From assembly GCA_016861245.1 (NCBI GenBank), contig BOKZ01000001.1:143107-186346 (forward strand): a stretch of 43,240 nucleotides of DNA, written 5' to 3'. The DNA comes from Patescibacteria group bacterium. GTDB lineage: Bacteria; Patescibacteriota; UBA1384; 2-12-FULL-50-11. Of the stretch, positions 1-43,055 are shown one piece after another. Each line of letters starts with the position of its first letter. The stretch's first letter is position 1. The notes beneath the pieces were generated by a model that worked only from the letters and a program-made list of their open reading frames with translations, searched no databases and was not told where the DNA came from. The position numbers and the translations under genes are program-made.

Positions 1-906
1 GTCCGCATTGATCGGCAAAAAAGTGTAAAGCGGCTCGTAAGACTCGCCTACGAGCGAGTTACCTTTGAGGTACTCTATCACCTCGAGCGATCCGTCCTGG
101 TAGCGCTCGAGCGCTTGGTGCGCCAAAATGTACTGTTTAGTACCGTCTGAAACCTTAACGTACTCAGCGTTCTCGTCCACTGCCAACGCTAGGTTGGCTG
201 GTAGCGTCCACGGCGTCGTTGTCCAAGCAAGTAGGTACACATCGTCGTTTAAAAGTCGGAACGAAACCGTAACGGCTGGATCCTCGACGTCTTTGTAGTT
301 CCCGTCGTCCATCGTAATCTCAAATTTCGACAGCGGCGTAGCGCAGCGCGGACAGTACAACGACACCCGACGGCCTCGGTAAATTAATTCCTGTTCGTAC
401 AGTTGCTTAAACATCGCCATCACCGACTCCATATAGTTGAGATTGTCGGTTCGATACGCGTTGTCGATATCCGCCCATCGACCGATATGGTCGATATACC
501 AGCGCCAGGCACCCGATACTTCCGAAACGTACTGACGGCACTCCTTGATAAACTTATCTAGACCCAGTGTTTGTATATCTTTTTTTGATTTCAGCCCGAG
601 TTTTTTCTCGACCTGATTCTCAGCAGGCAAACCGTGAACGTCCCAACCCCAAGTTCGACGTACAAAACGCCCTTTCATCGTTTGAAATCTCGGCACGACG
701 TCTTTGGCGATACTTGGCAACAGCGTCGCGTAGTGCGGAATACCGGTAATAAACGGCGGGCCGTCGTAGAACGAGAAAACCTCGCCATTTTTAGTTTGCT
801 CTAACGATTTTTCGTAGGTTTTGTCTCGTTGCCAAAAATCGAGCACCGACTCTTCCATCGCAAATAACGACGGAAATTTTTTACCAACAAACTTACGCTC
901 CGGCAT
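1..906 (-). CDS. ileS: isoleucyl-tRNA synthetase, N-terminal ~300 aa (runs off the left window edge)
   Basis: Not in the ORF track because it has no stop inside the window. My minus-strand translation from the ATG at 906 gives MPERKFVGKKFPSLFAMEESVLDFWQRDKTYEKSL..FSFYDGPPFITGIPHYATLLPSIAKDVVPRF..RRTWGWDVHGLPAENQVEKKLG..LYCPRCATPLSKFE..LAWTTTPWTLPANLALA. It stays open to position 1. The blocks match type-2 IleRS. The start overlaps the hisS stop by 14 nt. Confidence 0.85.
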   Translation of the reverse strand, partial: MPERKFVGKKFPSLFAMEESVLDFWQRDKTYEKSLEQTKNGEVFSFYDGPPFITGIPHYATLLPSIAKDVVPRFQTMKGRFVRRTWGWDVHGLPAENQVEKKLGLKSKKDIQTLGLDKFIKECRQYVSEVSGAWRWYIDHIGRWADIDNAYRTDNLNYMESVMAMFKQLYEQELIYRGRRVSLYCPRCATPLSKFEITMDDGNYKDVEDPAVTVSFRLLNDDVYLLAWTTTPWTLPANLALAVDENAEYVKVSDGTKQYILAHQALERYQDGSLEVIEYLKGNSLVGESYEPLYTFLPINAD

Positions 907-3475: not shown

Positions 3476-4618
3476 TCATTTTGCAATTGGCTTTACTAGA
3501 AGTAGCCGATCGTCTTGCTCGGTTGGCTTGGTCCTACCGTCGCGATTACTAGTTGTGACATAAAAGGCGCCGTCGCCGCGCGCCGTAACTGCTCGTAAGC
3601 GCCCGTAGGTACCGTCGATAATTGTTTCGTGCCGGAGAATTTTTTTATCCTGTATCTCAATTAGCTGTAGCTTTTGGCCACGCAAACCAGCAAACATGGC
3701 GACGTTGCGCAGATCCCAAATTTTTAATCCGGCAAAATCGATTCCCGAAGGCGCCCAAGTTTCCGTATTGCTTGAAAGTAGCGGCGCCACGAAATTTTGA
3801 TGATCCAAATCGCCTTTGCGAGCTGTCGGCCAGCCGTAGTTTTTGGTTGGCTCGATAATATTTACTTCGTCGTACGCGCTCTCGCCGTGCTCGGTTTCAA
3901 TTAGCTCCTCAGTCAAAGTGTGCCAGGTTATGCCCTGGGGATTACGATGACCAAGCGAGTAAACGAGCGAACCCTTCGTTGGGTTGTCGTCCGGAATAGT
4001 ACCGTCGTCGTTCATCCTCAGGACCTTTCCTTCAAGTCGATCCGATCGCTGCGCCAATTCTGGACGTGCAGCATCGCCAGTTAACACGTATAGCTTCTCG
4101 TCGGGTCCGAATCGTAAACGGCCGCCGTTATGAATTTGGCCACCAGTTAAGTTATTTAGAATCGTTTTATCTTCGGCTAGTGCGCCGTTTTTAAACACGT
4201 AGCGAACGACTTTGTTCTTAAGCTCTCCCCCCGATCGATACGTATAGTACAAATAAACGTAGGAGTTACTCTCAAATTTCGGGTGAATCGCCACACCGGT
4301 TAACCCCGACTCGGAGACGATCGCTACGGGGATCTCGGCAACGGTTGTTGGCTGATTTTTCTTGTCCCAGTGTTTAACCTTGCCGGTTCGTTCAGTAATT
4401 AGTAGAGTTTCGTCTGGCAACACCGCCACATCCCACGGGATCTCAAGCCCGGTTAGCAGAACTTCTGTCTCCCAGGTATACGAAGTCTCTTTAGAATACG
4501 GCGTATCCGTTTTACTAGCGGTTGGATCTGATTTTTTGTAGAGCGCGACGTAGCCAAATGTAAAAAATCCGATTAAAACCGCCAGGAGAAGTAAACGAGC
4601 AGCAAGAGTGTCTTTCAT
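3476..4618 (-). CDS. PQQ-dependent sugar (glucose/sorbosone) dehydrogenase family protein, membrane-anchored or secreted
   Basis: 380 aa with an N-terminal hydrophobic anchor. Family-typical blocks: GLEIPWDVAVLPD, GLTGVAIHP, LYVLTGD, GHRNPQGITW, YGWP. Confidence 0.85.
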   Translation of the reverse strand: MKDTLAARLLLLAVLIGFFTFGYVALYKKSDPTASKTDTPYSKETSYTWETEVLLTGLEIPWDVAVLPDETLLITERTGKVKHWDKKNQPTTVAEIPVAIVSESGLTGVAIHPKFESNSYVYLYYTYRSGGELKNKVVRYVFKNGALAEDKTILNNLTGGQIHNGGRLRFGPDEKLYVLTGDAARPELAQRSDRLEGKVLRMNDDGTIPDDNPTKGSLVYSLGHRNPQGITWHTLTEELIETEHGESAYDEVNIIEPTKNYGWPTARKGDLDHQNFVAPLLSSNTETWAPSGIDFAGLKIWDLRNVAMFAGLRGQKLQLIEIQDKKILRHETIIDGTYGRLRAVTARGDGAFYVTTSNRDGRTKPTEQDDRLLLVKPIAK

Positions 4619-6549: not shown

Positions 6550-6555
6550 GACAAG

Positions 6556-6629
6556 CGGTCCCGACGGGATTCGAACCCGTGATCTTCTGGATGAGAACCA
6601 GATATCCTAGGCCACTAGACGACGGGACC
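6556..6629 (-). tRNA. tRNA-Glu (anticodon CUC)
   Basis: Hand-folded cloverleaf: GGTCCCG-TC-GTCT-AGTGGCCTA-GGAT-A-TCTGG-TTCTCAT-CCAGA-AGATC-ACGGG-TTCGAAT-CCCGT-CGGGACC-G. CCA is not encoded. Confidence 0.95.
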
Positions 6630-6822: not shown

Positions 6823-7194
6823 CTAAGCCGTAAGCGCTTTTGAGACAGCGTCAACAAGTTCTTTTGGCTTTATTTGGGTTTTTAGAAAATACCCTTGTAC
6901 TCGCCCTTCAGCCATCTGCTGGTACTCGGGGTTTGGTAGAGCCGTTAAGATAAAAATCGGCACGTGTTTCGACTCCGGGTGCGAACGAAACACTCGTAGC
7001 GCCCCCAAGCCACCCTGGCGCGGCAACATTAAATCGAGAATTATCGCGTCCGGACGGTACATCAGCGCGTAATCAACTCCAGTCTGGCCATCTCCTGCTT
7101 CGTAAACAGTGAAATCGTGCCGCTTAAACACTTCCGAGTACAGTCTTCGTAACTCTTCGTTGTCCTCAATTAGTAATACCTTCCGAGCGCTCAT
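6823..7194 (-). CDS. receiver-only response regulator (CheY-like)
   Basis: 123 aa with a receiver signature (LLIEDNEE.., DAIILDLMLPRQGG, PIFILTA, lysine near FLKTQIKPKEL). No output domain. The ATG overlaps the upstream ATPase stop by 4 nt. Confidence 0.9.
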   Translation of the reverse strand: MSARKVLLIEDNEELRRLYSEVFKRHDFTVYEAGDGQTGVDYALMYRPDAIILDLMLPRQGGLGALRVFRSHPESKHVPIFILTALPNPEYQQMAEGRVQGYFLKTQIKPKELVDAVSKALTA

Positions 7195-9902
7195 TTGACG
7201 CTAGTATACTCTTCTTTGCTCTCGATCTGTGATATCGCCCACCGGCGGAGCAACCAAAGCACCCATTTGCGCAACTCGTCGGCAAATAAAATGCTGCTAG
7301 CGGCCACAAAGGCAACAATAATGCCACTCGTATCCAGTGCGACCGTGCCGAGCATCTGCTGTAAAAATGGAATCCTCAGAGCAGCCAATTGGAGGATGAT
7401 CGAGATCGGTACGGTAATAAGTATGAGTCGGTTAGTAAAGAACGGGATCTGCGTAATCGATTGGGTGGCTGAGCGGCTGTTAAACACGTTAAACAATTGA
7501 AAGAAGACCATCGTAGTTAGCGCCATTGTTCTTGCGTACGCCTCGCCAAATGTTAGCGAGTATCGATAGAGCGAGATCGTCACAACCGCCATTACCAGCG
7601 ACAATAGCAACATTCGCCCGAGCGTCGCGCGCGTAATTAGCTTGTCGCTCATCTTTCGAGGGCGCATCCGCATTAAGTCACGCTCCTCCGGCTCGACCGT
7701 CAGCGCCATCGAGTTAACCCCATCGGTAACTAAATTCAGCCATAAAATTTGCACCGGCAATAACGGCAACGGTAAACCAAGCAGTAGAGCACTGACAACC
7801 AAAGTTGCATCCGCAATACTGGTAGAAACCAGTAGAAAGACAACTTTTTTAGTATTCTCCCAGATTAGCCGGCCCTGCTCGATCGCGTCGACGATCGAGT
7901 TAAAGTTATCTTTGAGTAGAACCATATCCGAAGTTTCGATCGCCACATCAGTTCCGGCTCGACCCATCGCAATCCCGATATCGGCCTTTTTCAAAGCAGG
8001 AGCGTCGTTGACGCCGTCGCCAGTCATCGCCACAACGTCGCCGTTCTTCTGAAACCGCTCAACAATCTGAAGTTTTTGCGTTGGGGTTGAGCGGGCGATA
8101 ACACCGATTTGATCGCGATCGTGATGTAAAAACTCGTCGGCATGGATCGCTTTGCGTTTTTCGTCTAATAAGCCAAGTTTTTGTCCGATCGAAGTTGCAG
8201 TCAGTAGGTGATCGCCGGTAATCATTACTACCTTCATGCCAGCAGCAATCGCCTTTTGGATCGACGGCGCTGCTTCGTGTCGGATCGGGTCGGTCATCGC
8301 GATGTAGCCGACAAAGGTGATACTTTTAACCTGTTTCTCCTCAACTGGAACCGATTTTGGATAGTCAACGTACGCTAACGCGATAATGCGGTAACCGCTG
8401 CGCGCCAACTCGTGCGCGTAATCCTCAAGCGCGCTTTTTGTTGATGACAATAATCGTTTCGAGGCACCGGCTTGACTGAGAAACGATTGCGAGAGCGACA
8501 AGATCTTTTCCGGAGCGCCTTTCACAATGTAACGATGAAACTTACCGTAATCGTGAACTGATGTTGAATACCGAAGATCTTGGTTAAACGGCACCTCTAA
8601 CACTTCCGGATACTTCTTTTCTTGAGCAAACGCGTAGTAACCGGCCTTGGCAGCGAGCACTGCTAACGCTGTTTCTGTTGGATCGGTCAGCTCGCGAGCT
8701 TGATCGTCGCGAAGATCTTTCTCGGTAATTGTCGACATCGTCGCTAAGCTAGAAAGCTCCAGTAGCTCGTTAAGTGCTTTCTGCTTGTGCGGATCAACGG
8801 TTTTTTTGTCGAGACGGAACGAGCCGCTCAATTGGTAGCCTTCCCCCGTTACCTCGTAGTCTTGGAGCCCGACGTACAGACGCTCTACCATCATCTTCCC
8901 TTCCGTTAGAGTCCCTGTCTTATCGACACAAATAACAGTGGTTGAGCCGAGCGTCTCGGTTGCGGAGAGTTTCCGAATAATTGCGCCGCGCCTATAAACC
9001 CGTAACAAACCAATCGAAAGCGTAACGGTGATAGCGATCGGCAGCCCTTCGGGAATAATCGAAACCATCAGGGTGATCGCAACCTTCAACATATCCGACG
9101 CGCTGATCCCGGACATCGCTCCGATCGTGTAGCTAATAATCGCTGCGACCGCTGCGACGCCCAACAACGATCTTCCAAGAATCGTTAGCTGTCGCTGTAG
9201 GTTCTCCGGCAGCTCTTCTACTTCTGAAACTTCTTTGGCGATCGACCCGATCTCGGTTTTCATGCCGGTACCAGTTACCACCGCAACGGCTTGACCGGTA
9301 ACAACGAGCGTCGACATATAGAGCATATTCTTCCGGTCGATGAGCGCCGCATCGGCTGCAACTACGCCAACTTTTTTATGAGCCGGAACTGATTCCCCAG
9401 TTAAAGACGCTTGGTTAACTCGAAGCCCCTGGCTTTCAATAATACGGGCGTCAGCGGCAACTCGATCGCCGGCTTCCACTAACAATAGGTCACCAACAAC
9501 GACTTCGGCGGCGTCGATTTTCTGCTCGATCCCACTTCGCAATACCCTAGCCTTTGGCGAGAGTATCTGTCTGAGCTTAGACATCGTCTGCTCCGCCTTG
9601 CGCTCCTGGAAAAAGCCAATGAGTGAGTTGAGGACGACGACCGAGAGAATTACTACAACCTCGCTCCACTCGCGCTCCCAGGCAGAGAAAGCAGCAGCAA
9701 ATAGTAGGATATAAAGCAACGGACTCTTAAACTGCCGGAAGTAAATCTCAAAAGCGCTCGGACCCTCTTTACCCGTAAGCTCGTTCGGTCCGTGACGGTA
9801 GAGACGACGCCTTGCCTCAGTAGAAAGTAGCCCCCGATTAACATCTGTTTCTAATTCGTGCAGTAATCGCTCGCTAGGTACAGACCAAAAACGACTCGTC
9901 AT
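7191..9902 (-). CDS. cation-transporting P-type ATPase (type II, Ca2+/Mg2+-like)
   Basis: Motifs TGES, CVDKTGTLTEGKM, MITGDH and MTGDGVNDAPALKKADIGIAMG, with about 10 predicted TM helices. The track ORF starts at GTG 9920. The ATG at 9902 (MTSRFWSVPSERLLHEL..) fits the cation-ATPase N-terminal domain better. Confidence 0.95.
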   Translation of the reverse strand: MTSRFWSVPSERLLHELETDVNRGLLSTEARRRLYRHGPNELTGKEGPSAFEIYFRQFKSPLLYILLFAAAFSAWEREWSEVVVILSVVVLNSLIGFFQERKAEQTMSKLRQILSPKARVLRSGIEQKIDAAEVVVGDLLLVEAGDRVAADARIIESQGLRVNQASLTGESVPAHKKVGVVAADAALIDRKNMLYMSTLVVTGQAVAVVTGTGMKTEIGSIAKEVSEVEELPENLQRQLTILGRSLLGVAAVAAIISYTIGAMSGISASDMLKVAITLMVSIIPEGLPIAITVTLSIGLLRVYRRGAIIRKLSATETLGSTTVICVDKTGTLTEGKMMVERLYVGLQDYEVTGEGYQLSGSFRLDKKTVDPHKQKALNELLELSSLATMSTITEKDLRDDQARELTDPTETALAVLAAKAGYYAFAQEKKYPEVLEVPFNQDLRYSTSVHDYGKFHRYIVKGAPEKILSLSQSFLSQAGASKRLLSSTKSALEDYAHELARSGYRIIALAYVDYPKSVPVEEKQVKSITFVGYIAMTDPIRHEAAPSIQKAIAAGMKVVMITGDHLLTATSIGQKLGLLDEKRKAIHADEFLHHDRDQIGVIARSTPTQKLQIVERFQKNGDVVAMTGDGVNDAPALKKADIGIAMGRAGTDVAIETSDMVLLKDNFNSIVDAIEQGRLIWENTKKVVFLLVSTSIADATLVVSALLLGLPLPLLPVQILWLNLVTDGVNSMALTVEPEERDLMRMRPRKMSDKLITRATLGRMLLLSLVMAVVTISLYRYSLTFGEAYARTMALTTMVFFQLFNVFNSRSATQSITQIPFFTNRLILITVPISIILQLAALRIPFLQQMLGTVALDTSGIIVAFVAASSILFADELRKWVLWLLRRWAISQIESKEEYTSVK

Positions 9903-13151: not shown

Positions 13152-13161
13152 CATTTACTTG

Positions 13162-13232
13162 CTCCCGAGCAGGGATTCGAACCCCGGTTACTAGAGCCAG
13201 AATCTAGCGTCCTACCACTAGACGACTCGGGA
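13162..13232 (-). tRNA. tRNA-Gln (anticodon CUG)
   Basis: Hand-folded: TCCCGAG-TC-GTCT-AGTGGTA-GGAC-G-CTAGA-TTCTGGC-TCTAG-TAAC-CGGGG-TTCGAAT-CCCTG-CTCGGGA-G. U1:A72 and G73 fit bacterial Gln identity. CCA is not encoded. Confidence 0.95.
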
Positions 13233-22300: not shown

Positions 22301-22882
22301 CACGAAATTAAACTAGAAGATGCCGGCAAAACTGTGCGCGTCGGTGGGATAGTTCACGAGGTTAAAAAAATAACAACTAAATCAAATCAGATGATGGCGT
22401 TCGTTCAGTTAGAAGACCTTAACGCCGTTGTGGAGCTAGTCGTTTTCCCGACTATTTTCAAAGACAACCAAAAGTTTTGGGAACCAGACGCGATGGTTTT
22501 AGTTGAAGGCAAGATTAACGACAAGGACGGCTCGGCAAAGATTTTGGTCGATAAAGTTTGGCCGCTCGATTCTGTGACACCAGCGATTCTCTCACCGCTC
22601 GACCAGTCAATAAAACCGAATTTCAGTCGCGGTAACTGGTCGAACAACGCTCCCACAACCACCAAACCAACCTCTCGGCAGTTTACAATCGAGTTGCCGC
22701 AACGCACAACGAAAACGGTCATCGAGCAGCTTAAAACCATCTTGCTAGATCACCCGGGCGAAGCGACCGTCGAGCTCCGGATACCACACGGCGGCAGCAC
22801 TAAAATTGTTCAAACGAGCTTAAAAGTTAAGCGCTCCGAAGAATTGGAAGAAGAAGTCCAGCAGTTATTGATGCGCGTTTAG
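19394..22882 (+). CDS. dnaE: DNA polymerase III alpha subunit
   Basis: 1162 aa. PHP domain (FVHLHVHSHYSLLDG), polymerase core (GPGRGSAAGSLMAYCAGIT, PDIDMDF) and a C-terminal OB fold. Confidence 0.97.
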   Translation: MSKNQFVHLHVHSHYSLLDGLGKIPELVNRAVELGMPALALTDHGVLHGAIEFFTVCQKAGIKPIIGQEIYVAPRKLTDKSSGIDTRPYHMVLLAKDYEGYKNLIKLTTVAHLEGYYYKPRVDRDLLSRHSKGLIATSACLASETSRLILDNKEKEVLETIGEYAEIFGKDNYYLELQHHPAIQEQEVVNRAIKELSRKLKLPLVATNDTHYVNSDDHVSHDQLVCIQTGKLVSDTNRMLYTGDFSLKTPDEMAQAFSDTPSAIENTVKVAEMVNVDIELGKNLLPNFPLPEGETEESLLRKWCEKGLHERYSTVTPEIRERLNYELDMVIKMGFPGYFLIVADFVNFAKSKNIFVGPGRGSAAGSLMAYCAGITNVDPLRYGLLFERFLDVNRISMPDIDMDFEDVRRKEVIDYVREKYGDDHVAGIITFGTIMARAAVRDVGRVLGMSYAQVDTIAKAVPAPIQGRHIPLSKSVKEAPELKELYDNDPEAKQLLDSAMKLEGTIRHASQHACAIVISKDPLDEYVPVQQAQGGDVHQVTQYSMEPIEKIGLLKMDFLGLSNLTIMRQACEIIEATYGKKIDIYNLPLDDKKTFALLGRGETTGVFQLESAGMKRYIKELKPNLFEDIIAMVSLYRPGPMQWIQSFIDRKNGKEKITYLHPLAEEALKETYGIPVYQEQVMRLSKDMCGFTGSEADTLRKAIGKKIPKLMAEMKEKFINGAVKNGVKADRADEIWKQLEDFAAYCFNKSHATCYALIAYQTAYLKAHYPDCFMAALMTSDLDNIDRLSIEISECERMKLTVMPPDVNESFADFAVVKDARSIRFGLAAIKNVGLSVAKAIVRERKANGPFQSLEEFLSRCGTTLNKKVLESLVKAGALDRFASRESLYAGIELLVKTAAGGNKSHAANQMMIFGEEEQKTTIAKLNLPAGTADKKLNLVWEKELLGLYLSDHPIKEYSELLAKVATPLHEIKLEDAGKTVRVGGIVHEVKKITTKSNQMMAFVQLEDLNAVVELVVFPTIFKDNQKFWEPDAMVLVEGKINDKDGSAKILVDKVWPLDSVTPAILSPLDQSIKPNFSRGNWSNNAPTTTKPTSRQFTIELPQRTTKTVIEQLKTILLDHPGEATVELRIPHGGSTKIVQTSLKVKRSEELEEEVQQLLMRV

Positions 22883-23403
22883 CGAAGTGTCACTCGAGAG
22901 TCAGAAGACGACTCGCTCACCGAGCGTTGTACCCGTACAATTTCCTGTTGAATATCGTATGGATCTACTACGTCTTCTAAATCAACTCTTCCGTAACTAG
23001 AAGCCGTCTGGATTTTAACTCGACCGAAGTTGAAGACAGTTCGGATCGGTCCTTTGATTTCTGTTGATATCTCTTGAATTCGTTCGATCTCGGCCTCGGA
23101 AATTTCGCGATTAAACAAGCCGTTTTGATCGATTTTAATAACTCGTTGGTTCGTAATAATATAGTCGCTGTTGTTCCAGATAAACCACTGATACAAACTA
23201 TACAGCAGCCCAAAGCCAAGTACGCCAAAGATCGCGTACGAGCTTATCGTTGAGAGCCCAAATTTCCAGACAAGTAGGGCTATAATCGTAATCAGTCCTA
23301 ACCAAACCCAAACGATCGGCATTAATACCCACGGATGCTGTTTTACTACCAGTAGTACCTGCTCATTACTTCGCTTGCCGCGAAAACTATATTCCTCACT
23401 CAT
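22879..23403 (-). CDS. bacterial PH-domain (bPH_2/DUF304, YdbT-like) membrane protein
   Basis: 174 aa with two TM helices, then the motif NSDYIITNQRVIKIDQNGLFNREISEAEIERIQEI. Its stop overlaps the convergent dnaE stop (TTAG). Confidence 0.75.
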   Translation of the reverse strand: MSEEYSFRGKRSNEQVLLVVKQHPWVLMPIVWVWLGLITIIALLVWKFGLSTISSYAIFGVLGFGLLYSLYQWFIWNNSDYIITNQRVIKIDQNGLFNREISEAEIERIQEISTEIKGPIRTVFNFGRVKIQTASSYGRVDLEDVVDPYDIQQEIVRVQRSVSESSSDSRVTLR

Positions 23404-26407: not shown

Positions 26408-27298
26408 ATGTTAAACGTACCAATCGACAGAATCGTGCCGCTTACCGACGCCAGAGATAATTTTTCGCGAATTGTTGCTGATATCGAGAACCAAAAAGAC
26501 GGCTTGTACGTTTTAACCAAAGGCGGCAAACCTGCCATCGCGCTAATAAACATCAGTTACCTCTCAGATCTAATGAACGGCACCGCTGTTTTACCGCAGC
26601 CACACAGTCAGCCAAGCGCCCCACAACCGTCGAAAGAGGCTAAGACTGATGAAGTCGACGAACCGGTAACACCGTCAACTGATAAAAAGTCGATTGAGCC
26701 AGCTGATAAGCCAAAGGCCGAGACGCCGAAACCAGAAGAGCCGAAAACCCCGCCGCCTCCGCCGCCACCAGTTAGGCCGCCAGCAGCGCCAACAACAAAT
26801 CCGATTAATCCGACCTGGACCGGACAACAACCCGCCGCAGCTCCTTCAACCAAGCCTGTTAGCCCGTGGCCGATTCAACCAACGCCCCAACCTACTCAGC
26901 CGCTCGCCGCTCCGAAGCCACCGATCGAAGTGCCAGTAGTAACCCCACCAAAAGCAGTCGTACCGCCAGTTGCGCCCGTGCAGCCAGCGCCACCAAAACC
27001 TGTAGCCCCACCACCCCCGCCGCCTCCGCCGCCACCCCCCAATCCGGTAAACACGCCTATTCCTGTTGCCGTAAAAACAACGCCCGATCTGCCGCCACCG
27101 CCAAACAATCCAACGACAATTCCGTTTGATGAGGCGCCAAAAACGATGCTAGAACCAGGCGAAGAGCCGATCACACCAGCGCCTTCGCTTAGTCAACCGC
27201 AACCAGAGAAGTCGACGCCTACACCAACGCAGTCGTCCCCACCGCCGCCAGCAGCACCGGCACAAAACGCCAGTAGCGTTCAAGATATCGATATTTGA
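26408..27298 (+). CDS. Phd/YefM-like antitoxin-fold N-domain fused to a ~220-aa proline-rich tail
   Basis: IDRIVPLTDARDNFSRIVADIENQKDGLYVLTKGGKPAIALINISYL resembles Phd/YefM. The rest is low-complexity P/T/A/Q with P7 and P11 runs. The SD AAAGAGGGG lies upstream. Confidence 0.75.
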   Translation: MLNVPIDRIVPLTDARDNFSRIVADIENQKDGLYVLTKGGKPAIALINISYLSDLMNGTAVLPQPHSQPSAPQPSKEAKTDEVDEPVTPSTDKKSIEPADKPKAETPKPEEPKTPPPPPPPVRPPAAPTTNPINPTWTGQQPAAAPSTKPVSPWPIQPTPQPTQPLAAPKPPIEVPVVTPPKAVVPPVAPVQPAPPKPVAPPPPPPPPPPPNPVNTPIPVAVKTTPDLPPPPNNPTTIPFDEAPKTMLEPGEEPITPAPSLSQPQPEKSTPTPTQSSPPPPAAPAQNASSVQDIDI

Positions 27299-29529: not shown

Positions 29530-29913
29530 ATGAGTAAGACAACTATCGAAGAACCAAAAATCACCCACTCGCGCGAGGCAGAGCTATACTTAGCGTCTGC
29601 GCTCGTTACTTCCGAAGACTCTCTTAAGCACTTCGCTCAATTGATCGAAAGCCACGGCGCCGAAATTAAGAAATCTGAGAGTCTCGGACAGAAGCAGTTA
29701 CATCACCCGATTAATAAACATGGTTCGCTTTATCTTTTATCAGTATTCTTCACCGCCGTTCCAGCAACTGTACCAGCGATCGAAGCCGACTTACGTCGCG
29801 ATGATACGATCGAGCGAGCGCTCGTTACTACTTGGCGAGCAGATATCAACCAACCGATGCGTTCTGCTAGGGGACGAACTGACCGTGTTTCTAAGGAGAA
29901 AGAACAAGAGTAA
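29530..29913 (+). CDS. rpsF: 30S ribosomal protein S6
   Basis: Position upstream of ssb-rpsR, plus S6-like blocks (SESLGQKQLHHPINKHGSLYLLSVFF). Confidence 0.9.
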   Translation: MSKTTIEEPKITHSREAELYLASALVTSEDSLKHFAQLIESHGAEIKKSESLGQKQLHHPINKHGSLYLLSVFFTAVPATVPAIEADLRRDDTIERALVTTWRADINQPMRSARGRTDRVSKEKEQE

Positions 29914-42131: not shown

Positions 42132-42812
42132 TTGCAACAAGTCGAACTTCGACATTTAACGCTCGATCTGTGGTTTGCAATGTGGGACGGCTTAGCCGAG
42201 CTCTGTCAAACAACCCAGTACAGCAAACGACCTTCGTATCTTTGGTATCGCTTTCGCGAGCACCAGAACGACAGAAGACACTTTCACAACCTCGTCCACA
42301 TCGACGAGTGCGTGGGACACTGGGTAGCGATTCAGGACAAGTTCCGAGATTCAAAGTGGCTCTCGCTTTACACGCTCGTGATGCACGACTACGTCTACGA
42401 CAGCGAGCGTACGGATAACGAATCCGAGAGCGCAAAAGCTGCCGAGCAGTATTGGGATCTTGTCGGATTGCCGTCGCGTAGCACCTGGCTCCAGTGGGTG
42501 CAGCTGGGCATCCAATTTACCGACCACAAACGGTTTACTACCTACCCGGATTACCAGCGAATTTGCGATATCGACCTAATGAGCTTGAGCGTCAACTGGC
42601 CGCAGTTCAAACGCAACGGCGTTCTGATCCGCCGCGAGTATTCCCAGTACAGCACTGAAGATTACTGGATCGGTCGTCGCAACTTCTTCGTTGAATTCGC
42701 CAAACGTCCAAAGATCTATCAGTCGGCTGAGTTCGCTCAGTTCGAACAAGTCGCGCGTGGCAACATGCAACGGATGATCGAACTGATCAACGCCAAGTAC
42801 CCACCGCCCTAA
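42132..42812 (+). CDS. HD-superfamily phosphohydrolase-like protein (COG4339-like)
   Basis: RHFHNLVHIDEC and LVMHDYVYD resemble the H..HD motifs of that family. TTG start 6 nt after AAGGAGG. Confidence 0.65.
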   Translation: MQQVELRHLTLDLWFAMWDGLAELCQTTQYSKRPSYLWYRFREHQNDRRHFHNLVHIDECVGHWVAIQDKFRDSKWLSLYTLVMHDYVYDSERTDNESESAKAAEQYWDLVGLPSRSTWLQWVQLGIQFTDHKRFTTYPDYQRICDIDLMSLSVNWPQFKRNGVLIRREYSQYSTEDYWIGRRNFFVEFAKRPKIYQSAEFAQFEQVARGNMQRMIELINAKYPPP

Positions 42813-42826: not shown

Positions 42827-42853
42827 ATAAAAAAGTGCGCCCATGATGGGCGC
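42827..42853 (-). terminator. rho-independent terminator 3' of tRNA-Gly
   Basis: Minus sense GCGCCCAT-C-ATGGGCGC followed by ACTTTTTTAT, 17 nt after the encoded CCA. Confidence 0.6.
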
Positions 42854-42870
42854 GTATGATGGGAATGATA

Positions 42871-43007
42871 TGGAGCGGGTGGACGGATTCGAACCGCCGA
42901 CCTCCTGCGTCTGCTTCGCTGTGGCAAGCCCCAGAAGCTGGTTACCTACCCTCTTGATTTTTTCGCTAAGCTTGGCAAGCGCTCTAACCGCGTTGAGCTA
43001 CACCCGC
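42871..43007 (-). tRNA. tRNA-Gly-like gene with ~60 extra nt in the anticodon arm (137 nt, CCA encoded)
   Basis: Minus sense: GCGGGTG-TA-GCTC-AACGCGGTTA-GAGC-G-CTTGC-[66 nt]-GCAGG-AGGTC-GGCGG-TTCGAAT-CCGTC-CACCCGC-T-CCA. G1:C72, C2:G71, G3:C70 and U73 fit Gly identity. The 66 nt contain two TTGCCA (GCC anticodon-like) motifs. Confidence 0.7.
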
Positions 43008-43026: not shown

Positions 43027-43055
43027 ATTGTACCGCCATCTCTCGAGTAGATCAA
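43027..43055 (-). promoter_or_regulatory. sigma70-like promoter for tRNA-Gly (TTGATC-N17-TACAAT)
   Basis: Minus sense TTGATC (43055-43050), 17-nt spacer, TACAAT (43032-43027), ending 19 nt upstream of the tRNA 5' end. Confidence 0.5.

Follow-up and report, generated by a model that had tools for sequence, protein, structure and literature searches.

In a stretch of 43,240 nucleotides from a Patescibacteria group bacterium (assembly GCA_016861245.1, contig BOKZ01000001.1, positions 143,107 to 186,346; hereafter the window), a gene resembling tRNAGly was found on the minus strand at 43007..42871. The gene spans 137 nt including an encoded CCA, and carries 66 nt in place of the 7-nt anticodon loop. 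Our reading, held with moderate confidence, is that it encodes an expressed, tRNAGly-derived, non-decoding tRNA-like RNA, which would be neither a decoding tRNA nor an intron-bearing gene. As read from the sequence, the upper half of a tRNA (acceptor, T arm, and the elbow of G18G19 and T-loop) is kept together with the anticodon stem, and there is no recoverable anticodon. In place of the loop an arm would prolong the anticodon stem. It is predicted to consist of a helix (P2), an 8-14-nt purine-rich bulge of the form (U)CAAGAG(G), a second helix (P3) and, in some lineages, a terminal hairpin (P4).

From 5′ to 3′ the RNA reads GCGGGUG UA GCUC AACGCGGUUA GAGC G CUUGC, the 66 inserted nt, and GCAGG AGGUC GGCGG UUCGAAU CCGUC CACCCGC U CCA. 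The Rfam tRNA model (RF00005) matches 43007..42874 over model positions 1-71 with 49.0 bits against a gathering score of 29. This match is above chance (E = 1.3e-7 over the window) and places a 65-nt insertion at the anticodon loop. ARAGORN did not call the gene as a tRNA, and its search for transfer-messenger RNA (tmRNA) was negative as well. A 7-bp acceptor stem, a D arm with G18G19 and a T arm with a UUCRANY loop are all present. What a decoding tRNAGly needs below them is absent: instead of a loop of 7 nt in which U33 and R37 flank an NCC anticodon, 66 nt lie between the stem strands. An earlier, sequence-only reading of this DNA had described this anatomy, 66 nt instead of 7 inside the anticodon arm of a Gly-type body that is otherwise complete (acceptor, D and T arms, U73, CCA). 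Its coordinates and anatomy are correct, although it did not give the strand, and the Rfam match and our reading of the sequence agree with it.

The acceptor identity set for Gly comprises G1:C72, C2:G71, G3:C70 and U73. All four elements are present in the window RNA and in two of its diverged homologues, from the loci L136 and L134. In the third and most distant homologue, L239, C2:G71, G3:C70 and U73 are kept, but position 1:72 is A1.C72, and the pairs 5:68 and 6:67 have changed compensatorily. The acceptor strand of the window RNA is identical to that of a canonical tRNAGly(UCC) in another compared locus (L215). CCA is encoded in the tRNA-like gene, but not in the tRNAGlu (CUC, 6555-6629, minus strand) or tRNAGln (CUG, 13161-13232, minus strand) of the window. 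A consensus scan also bore out the promoter (TTGATC-N17-TACAAT) and the terminator proposed earlier. About 20 nt of leader separate the promoter from the mature 5′ end downstream; in L134 and L136, both promoter and leader are almost unchanged, with 88-93% identity over positions -60..-1. The terminator is kept in all relatives, and promoter, terminator and CCA are retained in all lineages. By these predicted signals, the gene is a separate transcription unit.

The gene is not confined to one assembly. All ten contigs from different samples that were found via a neighbouring 107-aa protein carry it with the insert, as do a metagenome-assembled genome (MAG) at NCBI, GCA_021463485.1, and two further runs. 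With at least 13 independent metagenome or MAG contigs in all, an assembly artefact is ruled out, including the chimera that the earlier reading had named as a condition for doubt. Close relatives differ from one another only in the D loop, in the P4 loop, in the bulge's A run, in a G run of four or five residues, and by a single C-to-U substitution in the joint J3/2. Within the bulge of L245, changes are confined to the A run. The G run, between P4 and P3 (42932-42935, RNA 76-79), is polymorphic: it reads GGGG in the window, L004 and L005, GGGGG in L001-L003, L006-L010, L245-L247 and L134, and GGUGG in L136.

Diverged homologues were reached through two flanking proteins of 226 and 143 aa, and then through homologues of PilC. 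L136 belongs to the lineage of P0007, a homologue of the 143-aa protein with 87% identity; its tRNA_bind protein is 92% identical to that of the window lineage, and its insert is 67 nt long. L133 and L134 encode a PilC with 92% identity, and the insert of L134 has 65 nt. In L239 the PilC is 80% identical, the insert is 47 nt long, and a normal tRNAPhe follows in the same unit. The homologues in L136, L133/L134 and L239 are syntenic: each lies downstream of a 143/153-aa gene, is convergent with the tRNA_bind gene and is interrupted at the same point. No such gene was found at the syntenic locus of L240, L244, L248 and L249, whose PilC is 68% identical. The nearest named homologues of this PilC/T2SS-F protein (63-66% identity) come from Candidatus Saccharimonadales, 'Patescibacteria group' and Berkelbacteria, and on that basis the carrier clade is, judged from protein sequence, Saccharimonadia-like, within the Candidate Phyla Radiation (CPR). 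A general-pattern scan of genome contigs gave no member of the family among the matches listed, a scan of metagenome contigs returned 102 stretches of which none belonged to it, and a covariance model of the RNA found no further member in about 1.4 Mb of compared loci.

Minimum free energy (MFE) folds made separately for each lineage agree on the architecture of the arm. The anticodon stem (P1) is followed by a small internal loop, P2 of 6-7 bp, an asymmetric loop, and P3 of 6-7 bp. The asymmetric loop has 8-14 nt on its 5′ side (J2/3, the bulge) and 0-4 nt on its 3′ side. P4 is added beyond P3 in the window clade and is missing from L239. Among the unpaired elements, conservation is highest at the 3′ end of the 5′ bulge (AAUCAAGAGG in the window RNA, CACAAAGAGG in L134, AUCUCAAGAGG in L239), with a core of UCAAGAG(G) in the window RNA and L239 and ACAAAGAG(G) in L134. 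Other joints are less constant: J3/2 measures 3, 0 or 4 nt, and the internal loop at the P1/P2 junction varies with the lineage (3x4, 9x8 or 2x1). The residues adjoining the anticodon stem differ fully between lineages (CAA/AGAC, GUAGUGUGA/GAACGGAC, AC/U) and are the least conserved of the molecule. No Rfam family matches the insert up to E 10, ribozymes, riboswitches, introns and T-box included, and no second copy of it occurs in the window or in the compared loci.

Evidence that this structure is maintained comes from the pattern of substitutions. In P2, GCUUAGC/GCGAAGC of the window RNA corresponds to GAUCGC/GUGAUC in L134 and UCAGCG/CGCUGA in L239, so that all six paired positions change and still pair; three double changes were counted on the model-fitted alignment. 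The T stem GGCGG/CCGUC becomes GGUUG/CAACU in L134 through two double compensatory changes. On the manual alignment, compensation was found in the acceptor, D, P1, P2, P3 and T helices. A covariance model (R1) was built on the arm and tRNA structure, and eight distinct sequences from four lineages were realigned to it (alignment A4). Over 38 pairs, 97.9% of the cells are paired, and in 11 pairs both partners have changed. In 500 shuffles none of these measures was reached, and 36-50% of cells were paired when partners were slid against each other. R1 scores the window RNA at 167 bits. Changes in L009, L010 and L245 are limited to loops and single-stranded joints, and two of the four changes in L136 touch pairs, both being compensatory or pair-forming.

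The rate of change points in the same direction. Between the window lineage and L134, flanking genes share 80-82% DNA identity and the RNA 75% (about 80% in the parts outside the insert, 69% in the insert); between the window lineage and L239, genes are 57-63% identical and the RNA 63%. Decoding tRNAs are nearly invariant at such distances. As the RNA drifts about as fast as coding DNA while its helices persist, the constraints of decoding appear to have been lost and a constraint on shape kept. On this comparative evidence, selection is on base pairing and not on sequence.

Several observations weigh against the reading of a non-decoding tRNA-like RNA. The MFE of the whole molecule is unremarkable (z = -0.79), and the structural support therefore rests on comparison rather than on energy. 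Only four diverged lineages are available from one narrow clade (PilC at least 80% identical), so independent events are few. P2 and P3 were aligned by hand or by fitting to the model, a procedure biased towards the structure. R1 is not specific, in that ordinary tRNAs score 40-70 bits and L239 just 48.5. The case for including L239 is therefore built on synteny, a Gly-type acceptor, an insertion at the same point, and two strings in common, UCAAGAGG and GGCUUGC, and not on its score. Homology of its arm to that of the window RNA is uncertain, and MAFFT aligns GGCUUGC rather than UCAAGAGG. Finally, the link to the neighbouring tRNA_bind gene as a partner is weak, as L249 has the gene without the RNA. 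The coordinates of the gene, its arm and its signals are collected in Table 1.

Table 1. Positions of the tRNA-like gene, its predicted structural elements and adjacent features in the window
Feature	Position	Strand	Description
5′ tRNA part (RNA 1-33)	42975..43007	-	GCGGGUG acceptor strand; U8 A9; D arm GCUC/AACGCGGUUA/GAGC with G18 G19; G26; P1 5′ strand CUUGC
Insert (RNA 34-99)	42909..42974	-	66 nt replacing the 7-nt anticodon loop; folds as P2, bulge, P3, P4
3′ tRNA part (RNA 100-137)	42871..42908	-	GCAGG; variable loop AGGUC; T arm GGCGG/UUCGAAU/CCGUC; CACCCGC; U73; CCA
P2 5′ strand	42965..42971	-	GCUUAGC; pairs with 42913-42919
P2 3′ strand	42913..42919	-	GCGAAGC; from MFE folds and manual alignment
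J2/3 purine-rich bulge	42951..42964	-	GAAAAAAUCAAGAG; most conserved single-stranded element
P3 5′ strand	42944..42950	-	GGUAGGU; pairs with 42923-42929
P3 3′ strand	42923..42929	-	GCUUGCC; holds the supposed 'GCC anticodon'; equals the first seven bases (42929-42923) of the second 8-nt repeat copy
P4 hairpin, arm tip	42931..42941	-	CCAG-CUU-CUGG; stem kept, loop varies (CUU, UUU, UUUU)
Sigma-70-type promoter	43027..43055	-	TTGATC (-35), 17-nt spacer, TACAAT (-10); consensus scan
Intrinsic terminator	42829..42853	-	GCGCCCAUCAUGGGCGC then U run; consensus scan: GC hairpin GCGCCCATCATGGGCGC and T run at 42853..42837
Stand-alone tRNA-binding domain, 107 aa	41744..42067	+	MetRS C-terminal/Trbp111/CsaA type; Pfam tRNA_bind 1.1e-21, NCBIfam metG_C_term 4e-26

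Other unusual tRNA genes were noticed at or near the syntenic loci. A second odd tRNA follows 9 nt after the tRNA-like gene in L134 (5921-5996, plus strand) and L133 (6698-6773, plus strand), with partial copies in L131 (6401-6460, minus strand) and L132 (980-1006, minus strand). It has a Pro-like acceptor (C1:G72, A73), its CCA is encoded, and its anticodon loop, CAGCAA, is 6 nt long. ARAGORN labels it 'tRNA-???' with a 2-nt anticodon, the Rfam tRNA model gives it 49 bits, and it is absent from the window despite homologous flanks. In the sister lineage L248 (PilC 68% identical), an odd tRNA with its own promoter and terminator lies near the syntenic locus (791-866, plus strand). Its acceptor is of the Gly type (GCGGGCG/CGCUCGC) with U73, G8 replaces U8, and the anticodon loop UUAACGG is called Val-AAC by ARAGORN. 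This tRNA may be related to the tRNA-like gene or have preceded it, or else its identity and anticodon may be mismatched. In L244, which does not have the tRNA-like gene, the intergenic region at the syntenic position (7270-7450, plus strand) holds a TAAAAT promoter-like box, about 130 nt of non-coding sequence, and a strong terminator (CCCCGCC..GGCGGGG and Ts). This region had no Rfam match at gathering score, and it may encode an unrelated small RNA.

An explanation that deserves to be weighed first, although we consider it unlikely, is a functional tRNAGly with a new kind of short bacterial intron, the arm being removed by an endonuclease and an RtcB-type ligase or by self-cleavage. The insert lies exactly within the anticodon loop, the classic site of introns, and the tRNA body is intact and under selection. 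Moreover, other bacterial tRNA genes were found to carry short inserts whose removal restores a perfect anticodon arm, so that short inserts in need of removal seem to exist in bacterial tRNAs, and intervening sequences are a known feature of the rRNA genes of CPR bacteria. To examine the idea, contiguous segments were deleted one at a time in every way that left 22-23 nt from the D stem to the T stem, and a product counted as a solution if its 5-bp stem enclosed a 7-nt loop carrying U33 and R37. However, the scan gave zero solutions in the window RNA, L136 and L239, and in L134 only trivial chance solutions that agree with nothing else. One-step splicing was rejected on this result, which extends to an exhaustive scan the earlier remark that removing one segment leaves no clean 7-nt loop. 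The test is able to succeed, because it works on most of the other interrupted genes tested, and it fails on this RNA.

Further observations speak against an intron. The residues flanking the anticodon stem, where the loop of a spliced product would have to be formed, are the least conserved, and in the folds the P1/P2 junction lacks bulge-helix-bulge (BHB) geometry. The sole triplet resembling a Gly anticodon is base-paired and not conserved. The exons would evolve about as fast as coding DNA, unlike those of an essential tRNA. There is no Rfam match to a ribozyme or intron, and neither RtcB nor a splicing endonuclease (EndA) is encoded among the open reading frames (ORFs) of the window. The short intron in a functional tRNAGly(GCC) that the sequence-only reading implied thus found no positive support in these tests.

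The sequence-only reading had also pointed to a repeat and to two supposed anticodons. The 8-nt direct repeat GCTTGCCA is indeed there, in two copies (42980-42973 and 42929-42922) 51 nt apart, but it is not significant: an exact 8-nt direct repeat occurs in 11-22% of shuffles of the 137-nt sequence, and the repeat is lineage-specific. It is not conserved in the relatives, the first copy reading GCCUGUGU in L134 and GCUGUAAC in L239. The TTGCCA motifs, taken to be GCC anticodons in loop context, are structural instead. The first consists of G26 and the P1 strand and the second is the 3′ strand of P3, and neither is conserved. The second 'GCC' is ACC in L136 (U.G to U-A), contains a bulged G in L134, where the partner U is deleted, and is absent from L239. 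The proposed pairing of CAAGC with GCUUG is specific to the window lineage and at chance level.

Other origins and mechanisms for the insert were tried and rejected. For a target-site duplication or a miniature inverted-repeat transposable element, removal of one repeat copy with the spacer (51 nt) leaves a 15-nt loop, and the repeat itself is not conserved and at chance level. A two-intron model with a 7-nt micro-exon, CUUGCCA, requires two novel splicing events and a segment that is paired and varies (ACC in L136, GCU in L239). BHB geometry, a K-turn and a platform like T-box Stem I were discarded, as the junction geometry is not conserved and there is no T-box or other Rfam match. The same absence of Rfam matches up to E 10 removes any known ribozyme or riboswitch in the insert. 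A phage or mobile origin was set aside as well, with no match in phage records or viral contigs, chromosomal genes around the locus, and no second copy of the insert.

The other interrupted bacterial tRNA genes surfaced in scans for extra sequence between D and T arms and form families of their own. One family has an insert of about 50-56 nt that ends in GGGTTAT, contains a conserved GYCCGCC..GGGCCG, and interrupts the anticodon stem in its 5′ strand, after position 28/29. Members were found in metagenomes, many of them from soil (L137 76-206, minus strand; L182, L167, L185, L160, L207, L189), and in Myxococcota (L026, L059, L077); L073 and L030 (Myxococcota) and L021 (a cyanobacterium) belong by motif only. 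Of 15 members tested, 10 regain a perfect anticodon arm (a 5-bp stem and a 7-nt loop) once the insert is removed, and the others gave no canonical solution. The anticodons obtained include Lys-CUU, Lys-UUU, Ile-GAU, Thr-CGU, Pro-UGG and others. From its sequence, this family looks like a mobile short tRNA intron.

A second family, from Flavobacteriia/Bacteroidota, has an insert of about 45 nt (GGTCAATnAAAAyTTACTTC) at the same 28/29 position. It includes L027 3300-3417 (minus strand; Flavobacterium hercynium DSM 18292), L067, L078, L083, L112, L122, L125 (two copies), L095 and L049. Removal restores tRNALys(UUU) and other tRNAs in seven of nine tested members, L083 lying outside the tested set; in L125 the two genes stand in tandem, neither with a canonical solution. 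No Rfam family was found for either type of insert. In a third group from metagenomes (L150 5181-5314, plus strand; L151, L153, L157, L166, L176, L180, L187, L190, L194 and others), the anticodon region holds what seems to be a second tRNA-like module in circular permutation, its T arm (GGTTGAGAGTTCGATTCTCTCAAG) preceding its D arm (TTAGCTTAACGGGAGAGC), with many near-identical copies across samples. Short tRNA introns may be commoner in bacteria than textbooks hold.

Excision without religation was considered next. Here the tRNA body would be a cassette for processing and stability, from which a nuclease such as RNase III or RNase E would cut the arm, as happens to rRNA intervening sequences, to release a free hairpin small RNA, or to leave two tRNA halves. 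The long, quasi-continuous helix is a plausible substrate for a double-strand-specific nuclease, the most conserved part of the arm is distal (bulge and P3) rather than next to the tRNA, and co-transcription with another tRNA in L239 and L134 would lead the transcript into the tRNA processing pathway. However, T stem, D stem, G18G19 and P1 are themselves kept by compensation, although they are relevant only to an intact tRNA shape, and no conserved cleavage motif was seen. We regard this outcome as improbable too.

The gene might also be a tRNAGly pseudogene, disrupted long ago by an insertion whose scar has survived by chance in a handful of closely related strains. A narrow taxonomic range, fast sequence drift, the lack of an anticodon and of an ARAGORN call, and a location in a strain-variable spot with inserted PIN/MazE, ASCH and metallophosphatase genes would all fit such a scar. 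Yet at 20-37% divergence every helix, those of the insert included, stays paired, as measured by the 11 double-changed pairs and the 97.9% of paired cells. Where changes are few, as in L009, L010 and L245, they fall only at unpaired positions, and those in L136 that touch pairs improve or create them. Promoter, terminator and CCA are also retained in all lineages. Decay is thus very unlikely, and the earlier argument against a long-dead pseudogene, which had been drawn from intact flanking signals, gains from the compensatory substitutions in all helices.

A miniature, glycine-charged RNA of the tmRNA type, directed to the ribosome and carrying a short frame or a Shine-Dalgarno (SD)-like AAGAGG in its arm, is the least probable of the explanations: the topology is that of tmRNA (the ends form the acceptor/T domain and the remainder is inserted below), frames can be read (GCG AAA AAA UCA AGA GGG UAG in the window RNA, GCA CAA AGA GGG AAG UAA in L134), and AAGAGG resembles the rare SD sequences of the window, such as AAAGAGGGG upstream of the gene at 26408, but the acceptor has G3:C70 and not the G3.U70 required for alanylation, ARAGORN and the Rfam tmRNA family give no match, the 'tags' are not conserved in length, frame or sequence (the frame differs in L239), and most window genes have no SD. 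A full D arm and anticodon stem would moreover leave no room for mimicry of the SmpB type. A tmRNA-like tag, or an SD with a start codon, was rejected for lack of conservation.

With these alternatives weighed, the non-decoding tRNA-like RNA can be compared with known systems. The topologically closest is tmRNA (SsrA), and every defining feature of tmRNA fails. On our reading, both are non-decoding tRNA mimics and stable RNAs with their own promoter. In both, the ends form an acceptor/T-arm domain with CCA, which can be aminoacylated in tmRNA and may be in the tRNA-like RNA, and the rest replaces the anticodon arm, beginning with a long irregular helix. tmRNA, however, has G3.U70 (Ala), a degenerate D arm, no anticodon stem, pseudoknots, a conserved tag frame and a length of 300-400 nt, whereas the tRNA-like RNA has G3:C70 and U73, a complete D arm and anticodon stem, a hairpin arm of 47-67 nt and no conserved frame.

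YrlA, a bacterial Y RNA-like molecule (RF02553), joins a tRNA-like module with D arm, T arm and elbow to a protein-binding helix, and is a substrate of tRNA enzymes (PMC4201824). It shares with the tRNA-like RNA the plan of a modular non-coding RNA made of a tRNA-like module and an extra helix. The arrangement is opposite: YrlA is permuted, with its ends in the Ro-binding stem and its acceptor-like stem closed, whereas here a true CCA acceptor is present and the extra helix is closed. The YrlA model of Rfam gives the tRNA-like RNA 16.1 bits against a gathering score of 69.

Introns in tRNA genes, either group I or archaeal and eukaryal BHB introns, resemble it in the insertion into the anticodon loop of an otherwise intact tRNA gene. 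Group I introns have at least 200 nt and a P1-P9 core, of which P3-P9 is catalytic, whereas the insert measures 47-67 nt and has no Intron_gpI match up to E 10. BHB introns present two 3-nt bulges and a 4-bp helix, and one excision yields a canonical loop; the tRNA-like RNA lacks this geometry, and its deletion scan was negative. The recombinant 'tRNA scaffold' of Ponchon and Dardel, from 2007, reportedly carries an RNA of interest grafted on a tRNA anticodon stem and is said to be correctly processed and resistant to nucleases. Its design is identical, a full tRNA body with a foreign structured RNA replacing the anticodon loop, except that the scaffold is man-made.

No natural bacterial counterpart or description of such an RNA turned up in our literature searches or in a review of non-canonical tRNAs (PMC7609411). 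That review covers the non-proteinogenic tRNAGly of staphylococci and irregular 'allo-tRNA-like' genes, which do not serve normal decoding and some of which are polycistronic with odd tRNAs (PMC7609411). These are similar in being extra tRNAs of the Gly type or irregular tRNAs, some of them with another odd tRNA beside them, as in L134. They differ in that they keep a 7-nt anticodon loop and a normal size, and deviate in the T arm or in the lengths of the acceptor and T stems.

What the molecule might do can be sketched from its parts. The tRNA body would act as a handle: RNase P would process its 5′ end, it would have a CCA end and be stable, and proteins that recognise the elbow or the acceptor would bind it. 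Maturation by RNase P and at the CCA end is suggested by the unit shared with tRNAPhe in L239 or with another tRNA-like gene in L134, and by the encoded CCA. Glycylation by glycyl-tRNA synthetase (GlyRS) would be possible, since GlyRS is able to charge acceptor helices and since C2:G71, G3:C70 and U73 were kept where other acceptor pairs changed. The arm would bar ribosomal decoding and present the bulge to a partner, either a protein or a pyrimidine-rich RNA. Complements of the bulge (CCCTCTTGAT, with at most one mismatch) occur in the window at chance frequency only. In effect, the RNA would be a natural 'tRNA scaffold' with the topology of a miniature tmRNA. More tentatively, it could serve as a glycine-charged, non-ribosomal glycyl carrier or charging sensor, or as a decoy or adaptor that brings a bulge-bound partner to the tRNA-handling machinery.

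A candidate partner may be encoded nearby. The 107-aa tRNA-binding protein of the Trbp111/MetRS C-terminal type (Table 1) has its gene less than 1 kb from the tRNA-like RNA in all four lineages, which weakly suggests it as an RNA partner. A convergent 226-aa gene (42132-42812, plus strand) is restricted to the clade; it is missing in L239 and disrupted in L133, and is therefore not an obligatory partner. In a search of 5.8 billion proteins, homologues of the 226-aa protein fell into three clusters and those of the 143-aa protein into four; neither protein has a match in Pfam, NCBIfam, PADLOC or the PDB. The AlphaFold model of the former is unusable (predicted local distance difference test score 40.6). 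Its motifs RHFHNxxHI, MHDYVYD and DNE may be those of a metal-dependent hydrolase of the HD type.

The window is chromosomal, with genes for DnaE, HisRS, GluRS, L19, S6, SSB, EF-P, NDK, a P-type ATPase and a XerC/D-type recombinase. A type IV pilus cluster, which includes a Kelch-repeat protein of 1663 aa, is present too. From GroEL to the tRNA-like gene, the intervening stretch is strain-variable (11343-14733 in L004/L005, 12835-13504 in L003, 953-1963 in L136, 7861-8893 in L245) and contains metallophosphatase, PIN/MazE toxin-antitoxin and ASCH-domain genes in different relatives. As the GroEL side differs in this way, the tRNA-like gene borders a hot spot of gain and loss. For many ORFs of the window, for example 3476-4618, 6823-7194, 22879-23403 and 29530-29913, a TAnAnT box precedes the start codon by 7-12 nt and an SD is lacking, and only a minority of the genes have GGAG or GAGG. 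This suggests that mRNAs with very short leaders or none are common in the organism.

Such a gene has a practical side. It escapes ARAGORN, and with a tRNA covariance model it is reported as an 'intron'-bearing tRNA, so that it could be miscounted in the tRNA inventories of reduced genomes. The insert families at position 28/29 may matter more than the tRNA-like RNA itself, and the intron alternative, if true, would mean a new splicing route for short bacterial tRNA inserts. Non-decoding RNAs with the shape of a tRNA are few, and each of them (tmRNA, YrlA, viral tRNA-like structures) has opened a field. If our reading is true, the gene would be a natural instance of a design that so far only RNA engineers have used, a full tRNA body with a foreign structured arm. 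The repertoire of non-coding RNAs in Patescibacteria is almost unknown, and their translation apparatus is already unusual. Should the RNA act as a carrier or sensor, or as a decoy or adaptor, it would represent a new functional class of bacterial tRNA-like RNA, so far found only in episymbiotic Patescibacteria.

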